From NCBI GenBank assembly GCA_951406725.2, contig OX597832.1, positions 67,642,001 through 67,706,000 of the forward strand: DNA of 64,000 nt, given 5' to 3'. Positions 28,412 to 31,779 of this stretch are shown in pieces. The translations under genes and the position numbers were made by a program. The stretch is from Octopus vulgaris (Eukaryota). A model generated the notes under the pieces. That model was not told the origin of the DNA, did no database searches, and was given only the letters and a program-made list of their open reading frames with translations. Each line of letters opens with the position of its first letter. Position 1 is the first letter of the stretch.

Positions 28412-28450
<39 letters not shown>

Positions 28451-28454
28451 TCAA

Positions 28455-28768
28455 GACTCCGCCGGTTACGACGACGAGGGTCCCAGCTGATACGATCAAC
28501 GGAACAGCTTGCTCGTGAAATTAACGTGCAAATGGCTGAGCATTCCACAGACACGTGTACCCTTAACGTAGGTCTCGGGGATAATCAGCGTGACACAGAG
28601 AGTTACAAGGCTGACCCTTTGAAATACAAGTACAACTCATTTTTGCCAGCTGAGTGGACTGGAGCAACGTGAAATAAAGTGTCTTGCTCAAGGACACAAC
28701 GCGTCGCCGGGAATCGAACTCACAATCTTACGATCTTACGAATGCCCTAACCACTAAGCCACGCGCCC

Positions 28769-28770
<2 letters not shown>
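28455..28770 (-). mobile_element. CORE-type tRNA-derived SINE family 2, full length, between (TA)n tracts
   Basis: Minus head gagggcgcgtggcttagtggttagg (A box)...gagttcgattccc (B box), then gtgtccttgagcaagacacttt (CORE-like). Confidence 0.9.
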
Positions 28771-28814
<44 letters not shown>

Positions 28815-28818
<4 letters not shown>

Positions 28819-29185
28819 AGTTCAGTAAAAATTTAAATTCAGATGAATATGGTACTTAAGTTGAAGGCATACAATTTGAAATATCCATACAATTTAAAAT
28901 AAGCTGATTATAATTAAAATAAGCAACAAGGATATCCAGAGGTAATGCAGTACGATAATTTCATCCATTTAATTGAACAATGCAAATATTACATCAATTC
29001 AAAATGTAGAGAAATCTTCAGCTGCACAAAAAAACAGAATTTAATTAAATTCGAAGGACCAGCTTAAGATTGCTCTACATTTTAAATTGATGTAATATTT
29101 GCATTGTTCAATTAAATGTAGTCGCATGAAACAATCGTACTGCATTACCTCTGGATATCCTTGTTGCTTATTTTGATTAGACATA
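28815..29185. mobile_element. Fold-back family C element with HHR (28946-29026, minus)
   Basis: 28910-29025 vs 29060-29180 inverted; TGCAG-CTGAAGA-long stem II-GAAA-TTATCG-TA-CTGCA. Confidence 0.7.
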
Positions 29186-29215: not shown

Positions 29216-29288
<73 letters not shown>

Positions 29289-29462
29289 ATGCAATAATAA
29301 ATCTCTGAGCGAGGTATAAACAGTAGCTACACGTCACCGTGAAGTATATTAGCCACTTAAATGTGGCTAACCCTTGAGGGTGGATGCTACTGCAGTTTGT
29401 AGATCCAGGAAGACACCTCCTCCAGCTGGCTATTGACACACTTTCTGTGCCTTGACGTGATA

Positions 29463-29507
29463 CACACGGACCCGAGTCTCTGTGTATTGACCCGTCATTA
29501 GCGTGTG
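29463..29507 (-). ncRNA. Hammerhead ribozyme motif in the inverted terminal copy (degenerate)
   Basis: Reverse complement: CACACG-CTAATGA-CGGGT-caat-ACACA-GAGA-C-TCGG-G-TC-CGTGTG. Confidence 0.6.
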
Positions 29508-29888
29508 ACAGTCAGCCACATTTAAGTGGAAAATGCACTTCACGATGTCGTGCAGCTACTCTTTATATCTAGCTCAGAGATTTATTGTTGCTTGTTTACA
29601 CTTTTCCGAGATTAGTGACTTTTCGTCACGGGTAAAAGGATATATATATTTGCATTGAGAACCAATCCACATCGTCAAACGGTGGTTGCTACTATTGCGT
29701 GTTGGTTGTGATTTCGTCGATGTGAGTTCGAATCGTTACACACTGATATTGTATGTTTGTTGTAGGTTTCCCCGCGTGGGTGAACCAGGATTCGTTGGAT
29801 TGTGTAAATTATTGAGAATAGACAAAGTTACGCAGCGGCAACGACACAAGGAATAAATACCAACGCCCTGGAATTGCAGGGAATAGAA

Positions 29889-31071
29889 ATGGACACAAGA
29901 AAGAGGAAGGAAGGAAGAAAATTTGTAAAAAAGGAGGGAACCAGTCTAAAGCTAACTCCCCCAGAAGAACTGATGAAAATTATAGGGAAGAGGACGGTAG
30001 TATACAGAACGTTGTCTACGTCCTCGAACAAGACAGAGGCAGCCCCAACAGAAGAAATAGAGGAATGCCTCAAAATGTGAAAAAATTGACCACGTCCTAT
30101 ACACGTGGAAAGAAGTATGGCTCAGTGGAAGTAAGGTTTAGCAACGAAGAAGATGCCATAAACCACTCCACGGCGCTGTTACGGACAACAGCATGGATAC
30201 TACTCCCGACGTACTGTGGCAAACGCTTTGCCAGAGTGTGAGTTGGAAGAGTACCCCCAGAAATCTAGGAAGAATGGCTGGTAGCAGCCATAATTCACGA
30301 TATGAAGGATGGGGCAGAGATCCTCAAGATAACGAGGTCGATTGGTGGGGATATAACCTCGAAGTGACTATGCAGGTATATTTGGAAGACTTGCATAGTA
30401 TAACGGGGGAAATAATACAACTGGAAGACAGCAGACTTCGAATAACAGTGAAGACCACCAACATGATTCCTTTTCAGCAAAAAGGGGCACAAGAAAGCAA
30501 GATGTCCCGAGAAGGAAAACGAAGAGGAGAAGAAAAGTGAAAAATACAATACCGAAGAGGTAGTACCAACGAAAGGGACAGATAGAGTGGAGGAACCCTT
30601 CACAGTAGTAAACACGAAGAAGAGAAAGGGACGGGTGAATTCTCCCCCACACAGTAAAAAAAAGGCTAAAGGAGATTGTGATAGAAGGAAAGTGAAATAG
30701 GTGTGAAGCACCAACAAAAGCACTAGTGAAAGAAGTCACAAAGGAAAAAACAGCTTTACAACAGGGAGAAAAAGGAAGCGTTCATAATATTTGTTGTGAT
30801 GTTTCTGCACGCCCAAACAGATCAGGCCGGGAGCCGCAAAGGTAAAGAAATAGTGAAAACGATTGTAAAATTTAAATTGGCAATAAGAGTAAAGTTGCCG
30901 CCAGGAAAATACCCGGAATACACAAAAGGAATAGTCATAGATAACGAGAGATTTTTGAAATCAAGAGAGATGTATGGACTTTTCATAGACCCGCTGGAGG
31001 TTGAAGTCGAGTTTGACGAGTTCCCACTAGTCTTGGAATTAGAAGATTCGAAACACTTTATGAACATGTAA
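29889..31071 (+). pseudogene. Decayed L1/Tx1-type ORF1 (RRM-like region plus CCHC zinc knuckle; ZCCHC3-like)
   Basis: Joined frames: MDTRKRKEG...YGSVEVRFSNEEDA...PTYCGKRFARV*VGRVPPEI*EEWLVAAI...RLRITV / RPPT*FLFSKKGHKKARCP (decayed CX2CX4HX4C at 30464-30505), then a K/E-rich tail; several stops and frameshifts. Confidence 0.7.
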
Positions 31072-31406
31072 AAACAGGTAAAATTTGTACTTCATATATA
31101 AAAAGAACGAGGAAAATATACTGTTAAAAAGCTTAAAGCAAACAGAAAAAATCGATCCAAAAGATAACAAAAAGTAAGAAAAAGCGAACGAAAAATGGGA
31201 GAAAAAGAAAAGACTGTAAGAACGTTTAATTGTGAAAAAGTAATCGTGGTTTCGTCTCGGAGCGGGACCGTGAGAGCCGTCTCATATTCATTATAATTTA
31301 ATTCATTGTAATTCATTCTTTCAATTTTTTTTTTTGTTTTTGCATGTTTGTGTATGTCCCCTCTGTATAGGCCTTGTGCCTATAATAACGTGAAACCGGT
31401 GATTGT

Positions 31407-31451
31407 CACACGCTGATAACGGGTCAATACCCAGAGACTCGGATCCGTGTG
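31407..31451 (+). ncRNA. Hammerhead ribozyme motif in the 3' terminal repeat (degenerate)
   Basis: CACACG-CTGATAA-CGGGT-caat-ACCCA-GAGA-C-TCGG-A-TC-CGTGTG; combining both copies restores CTGATGA. Confidence 0.6.
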
Positions 31452-31779
31452 TATTACATCAGGTTGTAAATGGGAAGGATGGGTTCCCTTTGCAAATATT
31501 GATAGAGATTAGAAAGTGTGTCAAAAGCCAGCTGGAGAAAGTGTATTCCTGTGGCTACAAGCTACAGTAGCATCCACCCTTAAGGATTAACCACATTGAA
31601 GTGGCAAATATATTTCACGATATATATATATATATATATGAATGATACATATCCACTCGTGACCTGGAAAGAGCACCTCTGATCAAGCCTGGTGCCTTCC
31701 TAACCAACCTGGCCTCGGAAAATCTGACTGATAAACCGTGCCATCAGATCCTTGGGTAATTATTCTTCTCGCGGGGACT

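Follow-up and report, generated by a model that had tools for sequence, protein, structure and literature searches.

The region at 29291-31640 of the window (the 64,000-nucleotide stretch of Octopus vulgaris DNA analysed here) consists of two separable modules, an ORF1-only LINE derivative, or half-LINE, nested inside a hammerhead repeat. The reading that we favour with considerable confidence is that of a small hammerhead repeat with Penelope-type anatomy and a nested ORF1-only half-LINE flanked by a 17-bp target duplication, the half-LINE likely having been inserted by the ORF2 of a full-length LINE. The half-LINE unit (29693-31392, ~1.72 kb) lies between the two copies of the 17-bp repeat, inside a hammerhead repeat of ~370 nt, to which the apparent pLTR, the inverted segment and the terminal (TA)n belong.

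The features of the locus are collected in the table. The initial annotation described them as a single Penelope-architecture element, and the order that it gave, an inverted HHR-B-C segment followed by C, a leader, an A-rich ORF, a 3' UTR, HHR-B-C and (TA)n, is present in a self-comparison, in which 29291-29514 matches 31400-31619 in inverted orientation with 85-89% identity in three pieces (29511-29591 is a further matching segment). The Penelope-type anatomy stands for the ribozyme module; the single element does not, since the 17-bp repeat, which that annotation had overlooked, splits it into a nest of two. The ORF (~1.26 kb, A-rich) is frameshifted, with tblastn pieces spread over all three frames. 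Its translation contains the words YGSVEVRF, GRVPPE and EEWL and the decayed CCHC knuckle that had been noticed, the knuckle being an intact CX2CX4HX4C (Pfam zf-CCHC) in natural sister copies, and the stretch 29291-31620 does lack RT, APE and GIY-YIG sequences. Just upstream, between TA tracts, the window holds an unrelated SINE-like repeat and a short inverted-repeat element (28450-28772 and 28820-29180).

Table. Features of the nested locus, in window coordinates.
Positions	Strand	Feature	Basis
29291..29514	-	Hammerhead repeat HHR-B-C plus extension, inverted and 5'-truncated; Penelope-type inverted arm; HHR core mutated	self-comparison
29511..29675	+	Hammerhead repeat C-D block, direct; upstream host flank	block also found ahead of HHR in empty repeats
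29640..29649	+	Putative repeat promoter: TATA-like box, ~30 bp upstream of the 5' copy of the target duplication	sequence and positional statistics
29676..29692	+	Target-site duplication, 5' copy, 17 bp	direct-repeat comparison
29693..29810	+	Half-LINE 5' leader; lacks ~60 bp that sister copies have immediately ahead of the ORF start	comparison with sister copies
29811..31071	+	Decayed ORF1, disrupted by several frameshifts and stops; two RRM-like domains, then a CCHC knuckle, a linker rich in K/E and a conserved C-terminal domain of ~85 aa	
31072..31392	+	3' UTR and LINE-type tail ending at AATAAA signal (AATAAC in the window copy, 31384-31389)	tail resembles those of other ORF1-only families and full LINEs
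31393..31409	+	Target-site duplication, 3' copy, 17 bp	direct-repeat comparison
31407..31451	+	Type I hammerhead ribozyme; two core changes in the window copy; predicted cut after 31445	
31452..31620	+	Hammerhead repeat, B-C part	self-comparison
31621..31640	+	(TA)n microsatellite, 3' end of repeat	sequence; further TA/TG tract at 29220-29290

The host module carries a type I hammerhead motif with stem I CACACG/CGUGUG and stem II GGG/CCC. Both hammerheads in the window have core changes (CUGAUAA or CUAAUGA, and GAGA for GAAA), and because of these changes both copies are probably inactive. A scan with the motif found 130 non-redundant sites in 331 loci and none in the reversed loci, and an Rfam scan returned TA-repeat artefacts only and no match to a hammerhead model. 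Stem III is short and palindromic at 66 of the 130 sites, and type I hammerheads of this form are reported to be active as dimers (PMC4209133). The repeat units (~345-370 nt) are non-coding and show D>HHR joints, in the manner of metazoan non-LTR retrozymes, for which short non-coding units of 170-400 nt, arranged in tandem and bearing type I hammerheads, are described (PMC7229834); the octopus repeats differ in having Penelope-type inverted arms and (TA)n ends and in serving as LINE landing sites. The HHR-bearing pLTR, the partial tandem arrangement, the inverted 5' arm and the (TA)n target are found on the small repeat with or without the ORF. Among the first 30 of 121 exact-core hammerhead matches we mostly find the short non-coding unit, often with an inverted arm of its own, and in none of the 30 a half-LINE tail upstream of the ribozyme. 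The Penelope-like anatomy is therefore a property of a small repeat that also occurs where the ORF is absent. Copy numbers also differ by part, with at least 331 for the ORF DNA, at least 3,286 for the ribozyme block and at least 12,652 candidates for the protein in the 2.8-Gb genome, all of which are lower bounds or loose first-look candidates.

Around the ~16-17-bp repeat all four joints occur, namely D>HHR, D>leader, tail>HHR and tail>leader. For the leader, 30 of 40 loci were scored by eye, and it follows the D block in 12, the tail of another ORF unit in 17 and other sequence in 1. For the tail (n = 30), the hammerhead repeat follows in 27, part of the repeat in 2 and unrelated DNA in 1. 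This last copy (L009) lies at a ribozyme-free site with a perfect 15-bp TSD of its own. Chance nesting at this one locus had been named at the outset as the finding that would undo the ORF-ribozyme link; with 29 of 30 leader loci at the hammerhead repeat, the link is one of targeted nesting and not of chance. The idea of a chimeric single retroelement is not supported: a LINE-type tail and a TSD belong to the ORF unit itself, which also occurs without the ribozyme, at L009 and in other families. A tandem ORF joint was considered as a spliced intron and rejected, there being no AG acceptor at the joint.

We weighed whether the composite of repeat and ORF1 could be one non-autonomous Penelope-type element, formed once and amplified by the RT of a Penelope-like element (PLE), and consider this improbable. 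Most copies do show Penelope-type anatomy, several 5'-truncated half-LINE copies have no upstream D-repeat junction, and of six informative inverted arms at filled loci two (L014, L094) contain half-LINE sequence, the arm at L094 being 675 bp long, 98% identical and inclusive of the ORF end and tail, with L014 similar. The composite was thus copied as one unit in these two cases, and at times such joint copying, or a later rearrangement, takes place. The other four arms (L017, L018, L023, L236) carry the empty-type junction, indicating that the repeat was present first. Against a single origin stand also the variants of the 5' and 3' repeat, which co-vary within copies (54 of 66 matches vs 43.1 permuted, P = 0.00075, 11 pairs), the separate TSD of L009, and the use of this slot by ORF families of no relation and by complete APE-RT LINEs. 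The ribozyme blocks occupied by the window's half-LINE family are moreover interleaved with empty ones, so that the occupied repeats are not monophyletic (single clade rejected, p-AU 0.003, in a quick tree of 17 vs 48 rows and 211 columns in which some 'half_other' labels are probably empty repeats). Our trees were built quickly from short alignments (211-458 columns), and repeats could have been scrambled by gene conversion. TSD-like calls were obtained at 60 of 140 ORF1 loci vs 4 of 153 control sites, at least two of the calls being spurious. The best reading of the 17-bp repeat is that of a TSD, left by insertions that occurred repeatedly in ribozyme repeats already in place, the composite being occasionally copied thereafter.

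The same alternative can draw on active PLEs, which are abundant in this genome. We count 16,018 RT candidates, including near-identical intact copies, for PLEs that encode RT plus GIY-YIG and that we take to be Neptune-type from their architecture; their ends lie at (TA)n, and the minimal hammerhead that they contain is a different one. PLEs (Neptune; Chlamys-2_cBra) are described with HHR-bearing pLTR-like repeats, an inverted 5'-truncated arm and (TA)n targets (PMC8557442, PMC4209133), and in Chlamys-2_cBra a zf-CCHC ORF lies upstream (PMC8557442). The window element differs from these in that it has no PLE ORF with RT and GIY-YIG, its ORF being a nested LINE passenger. Of 50 Neptune-type loci (30 + 20 of the 16,018 RT candidates), none shares the window's repeat, and in none is a CCHC ORF present upstream as a component of the element. 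The initial annotation had envisaged one segment of a bipartite system served by an RT-GIY-YIG element with the same pLTR; no such element appeared among these 50 loci, and the RT-encoding relatives of the ORF are instead APE-RT LINEs in the same slot. The only PLE RT adjoining an ORF1 (L099) was rejected as a two-ORF PLE, since it is an insertion that has lost its 5' part and has an inverted arm of its own; the RT begins at the DKG motif and is preceded by part of the element's 3' UTR in inverted orientation. A very young intact Neptune-type family (L112-L161; 753+ aa, minimal hammerhead with a UUGACAA core, (TA)n ends) is accompanied by two older families of ~70% identity, and 3' of one Neptune fragment (L157) lies a fragment of a different RT, presumably of Naiad type given its motif. 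We find it plausible, by inference, that Neptune-type PLEs are the trans-mobilisers of the small repeat.

The nested unit belongs to a group of ORF1-only families whose protein is well preserved elsewhere. Other families contain complete natural ORFs of 431-461 aa, in which an RRM-like region (49-135) is followed by a second one (135-219), a CCHC knuckle, a charged linker and a conserved C-terminal domain of ~85 aa. Residues 49-135 and 135-219 are predicted to adopt two RRM folds. This assignment rests on the alignment-based model (pLDDT 86), which matches tandem-RRM proteins in Foldseek at E ~2e-5 with middling Z scores of up to 8.8; a single-sequence fold (pLDDT 41) was uninformative. The C-terminal ~85 aa had no Pfam assignment and no usable Atlas match and were barely covered in the fold searches, so that the lack of matches is no sign of novelty; over the last ~85 alignment columns they form a conserved alpha/beta domain specific to the ORF1-only families. 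Named homologs of the ORF are octopod proteins (Octopus sinensis, O. bimaculoides, O. vulgaris and Argonauta hians), and the element is therefore not HAL1 proper, which is of mammalian L1 descent.

The assignment of the ORF to the L1/Tx1 ORF1 type is borne out by its homology to the ORF1 of APE-RT LINEs. A divergent LINE ORF1 with APE lies directly behind a window-family tail and repeat (L091), and a search with this ORF1 led to intact 5.3-kb LINEs with an ORF1 of ~480 aa and an APE-RT-zf ORF2 of ~1,140 aa, many of them arranged head to tail in arrays. Their Pfam domains are RVT_1, Exo_endo_phos, zf-RVT and zf-CCHC, a CCHC ORF1 combined with an APE-RT-zf ORF2 that we assume from its architecture to be of L1/Tx1 type. 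The ORF1 proteins of LINEs and ORF1-only elements are matched by hhalign with a probability of 100% at 28% identity, so that the ORF1-only element encodes nothing but a homolog of LINE ORF1, on a unit that has both a TSD and a LINE-type 3' tail.

The possibility that the ORF-only copies are dead deletion derivatives of an active ORF1+ORF2 LINE, listed beforehand as a finding that would overturn the proposal, is largely refuted, and we regard it as very improbable. Homologous ORF1 N-terminal domains and the similarity of half-LINE 3' tails to those of full LINEs are what one could cite for it. However, in an ORF1 tree of 109 rows the 68 ORF1-only rows form a separate, deeply branched clade vs 41 LINE rows (SH-aLRT 100, branch ~1.3); this tree is a quick one, with one of the 41 LINE rows mislabelled and LINE sampling biased by the query. 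The ORF1-only families also have their own C-terminal domain and their own stop-to-tail distance, besides the complete ORFs noted above. For the 33 of 66 pairs in which it could be computed, dN/dS is below 1 throughout (0.10-0.61), as had been asked of a functional ORF, with values of 0.26-0.61 within the window's family and 0.10-0.41 in 27 other pairs, the remaining pairs being saturated; synonymous sites are saturated between families. These comparisons of sequence show that the ORF1-only elements are an old radiation of their own under purifying selection. At none of 121 partly overlapping ORF1-only loci does an ORF2 follow in order, and the RT or APE pieces near 14 of the 121 lie upstream, in opposite orientation or in truncated inserts. 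We found no autonomous LINE whose own ORF1 falls within the ORF1-only clade, so that the full-length LINEs are only candidates for the parent and for the source of the trans-acting ORF2. One candidate for an autonomous parent (L083) was rejected, since only a mid-ORF2 fragment from aa 731 follows. The half-LINE is likely to be mobilised in trans by the ORF2 of a partner LINE, of which shared slots and mixed arrays are indirect signs. An abundant SINE (L412:~370-640) has a 3' end that resembles the half-LINE tail, which suggests that SINE and half-LINE use the same RT partner; at two loci (L259, L269) half-LINEs are inserted near the 5' end of this SINE.

The slot is shared widely. Other ORF1-only families are hosted by the window's repeat (L092, L094, L097, L103), by a third hammerhead repeat (L100, L111, L258, L272) or by ribozyme-free hosts. 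Of 40 LINE-clade loci, 4 (L229, L234, L236, L285) lie at the same site of the window's ribozyme repeat family and 9 at the matching site of another hammerhead repeat, and the same slot is used by several half-LINE families and full LINEs, including mixed head-to-tail arrays. Young intact LINEs occur in a second hammerhead repeat of ~360 nt with an atypical UUGAAAA core (L226, L231-L233, L282-L284, L291, L299), and at L232 and L284 the variant of the LINE and that of the second repeat appear linked, hinting that an autonomous LINE is co-amplified inside this ~360-nt ribozyme repeat. Elsewhere (L222-L228, L332-L361) six or more 5.28-kb LINEs can form head-to-tail arrays with one TSD copy between each.

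Insertions of both half-LINEs and LINEs cluster 24-35 bp behind TATA-like boxes. For the tests of this position, 26 and 23 of the 60 TSD calls were kept, with one site per host, after tandem copies, same-host repeats and two spurious calls had been dropped and three doubtful calls retained. A TATA score of >=7/8 at -35..-24 before the TSD is found at 13 of 26 sites vs 55 of 416 background windows (P = 7e-6). A second TATA motif, present at 14 of 23 non-HHR sites vs 17 of 253, was chosen after seeing the data and is supportive only, and 9 of the 23 sites have no TATA word. One full LINE (L293:6461-6657; G000:C23) has a TSD that spans the 5' end of a U2 snRNA gene, beginning 3 nt ahead of it, with an intact U2 downstream; the transcription start is known at this site only, the other start positions being inferred. 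From these positions the insertion site would be the host transcription start behind a TATA-like box.

This positional pattern could also arise if the ORF2 endonuclease recognised local sequence or structure in a few abundant hosts, the association with TATA being a by-product of selection for transcribed copies. We judge this rather unlikely as the account of targeting; it bears on that step alone and does not conflict with the nested anatomy. Sequence targeting is known for Tx1 families (Tx1D, U2, Mariner-N4; PMC4494074), and in the youngest octopus LINE family the TSDs often start with TCT. A young LINE family has 10 of its 15 readable 5' flanks in a variant of a ~1.15-kb host from which the TATA segment is deleted. 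TATA-less hosts are filled in 6 of 30 cases, and as the filled ones are not one clade (p-AU 0.019), they were entered by independent site-specific insertion, with the TATA box dispensable there; sequence or downstream cues may guide insertion into them. The TATA-bearing form of the host is represented by 27 copies, with fill status known for 2. This host (L412-L441), which we take to be Helitron-like, is a non-autonomous repeat ending in a hairpin and CTAG and is a recurrent LINE target in TATA-bearing and TATA-less forms. Recognition by ORF2 fits less well with the TSDs at the 23 non-HHR sites, which have a common position and no obvious common motif, with single young copies with intact ORFs at the same TATA offset, and with the U2 site, which matches the RNA start.

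In the sequence of events that we propose for the nested half-LINE, the hammerhead repeat would first have inserted at a TA tract with its inverted arm. A half-LINE RNA with the LINE-type tail at its end, covered by the ORF1p that it encodes, would then be inserted by the partner ORF2p of the 5.3-kb LINEs through target-primed reverse transcription, duplicating 17 bp at the repeat's presumed transcription start, ~30 bp behind the TATA-like box. The passenger may thereafter be transcribed from the host promoter, and each new insertion at the same position would push older ones downstream, giving rise to arrays. The half-LINE would keep ORF1p as an RNA chaperone and possibly as a targeting factor, a tether between ORF1p and promoter being suggested by analogy with TRE5-A. 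The repeat itself was probably moved in trans to (TA)n by a Penelope-like RT, with the passenger occasionally carried along.

By analogy, the octopus element may work like the half-LINEs HAL1 or TRE5-A.2, combined with Tx1-type targeting and a retrozyme-like repeat. HAL1 is a non-autonomous LINE derivative that encodes ORF1p only (PMC5753468), and the octopus half-LINE resembles it in encoding ORF1 alone, and has a TSD and a LINE-type tail; it differs in deriving from an L1/Tx1-type LINE with an RRM-RRM-CCHC ORF1, in its strong positional targeting and tandem arrays, and in its extra C-terminal domain. TRE5-A.2 of Dictyostelium is likewise ORF1-only and is moved in trans by the ORF2 of the full element; TRE5-A inserts position-specifically beside promoters, and its ORF1p binds TFIIIB subunits in vitro (PMC3159450). 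An ORF1-only partner beside a full element and insertion at a promoter position are thus common to both systems, trans-mobilisation in octopus being presumed. Insertions of TRE5-A are found ~50 bp ahead of tRNA genes, which are Pol III genes, whereas those in octopus lie at presumed Pol II starts behind TATA boxes, and the octopus ORF1-only clade is old and divergent in relation to LINE ORF1, not a recent deletion. Tx1-clade LINEs (Tx1L, Keno, Tx1-Mar, SINEU partners) are APE-RT elements that insert into transposons or U2 genes, and their tandem insertions sandwich the TSD, with possible reliance on flanking promoters (PMC4494074). The octopus LINEs share with them a target preference accompanied by a TSD, but hit many unrelated hosts at a common TATA distance and not one sequence, their clade being presumed from architecture.

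L1-Tx1 and Penelope families are listed for O. vulgaris (PMC13282606); the supplement of that study makes no mention of hammerheads, ORF1 or retrozymes, and the text portions examined contain no targeting analysis. In searches of the open literature we found no published descriptions of cephalopod ORF1-only Tx1-type elements, of LINE targeting to TATA positions or of LINEs nested in hammerhead repeats, nor did we find one of hammerhead repeats in octopus, which are documented here. Apparent 'Penelope + gag' chimeras in cephalopod repeat libraries are, on this evidence, to be understood as nests. A wider reading, which we advance tentatively and rate somewhat short of an even chance, is that octopods carry a LINE lineage which targets Pol II starts generally (25-35 bp behind TATA, at snRNA genes and at the promoters of transposons and ribozyme repeats) via ORF1, that the old ORF1-only parasites under selection keep ORF1 with a new C-terminal domain for the tether, and that nested composites can be copied again by Penelope machinery into protein-coding, ribozyme-flanked units. 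To our knowledge, the usual targets of site-specific LINEs are a single host sequence or genes transcribed by Pol III. A LINE family that lands at Pol II starts across unrelated hosts would, if true, represent a new targeting strategy; it would have direct regulatory consequences, would predict an interaction between ORF1 and promoters, and would explain why an ORF1-only parasite has remained under selection.
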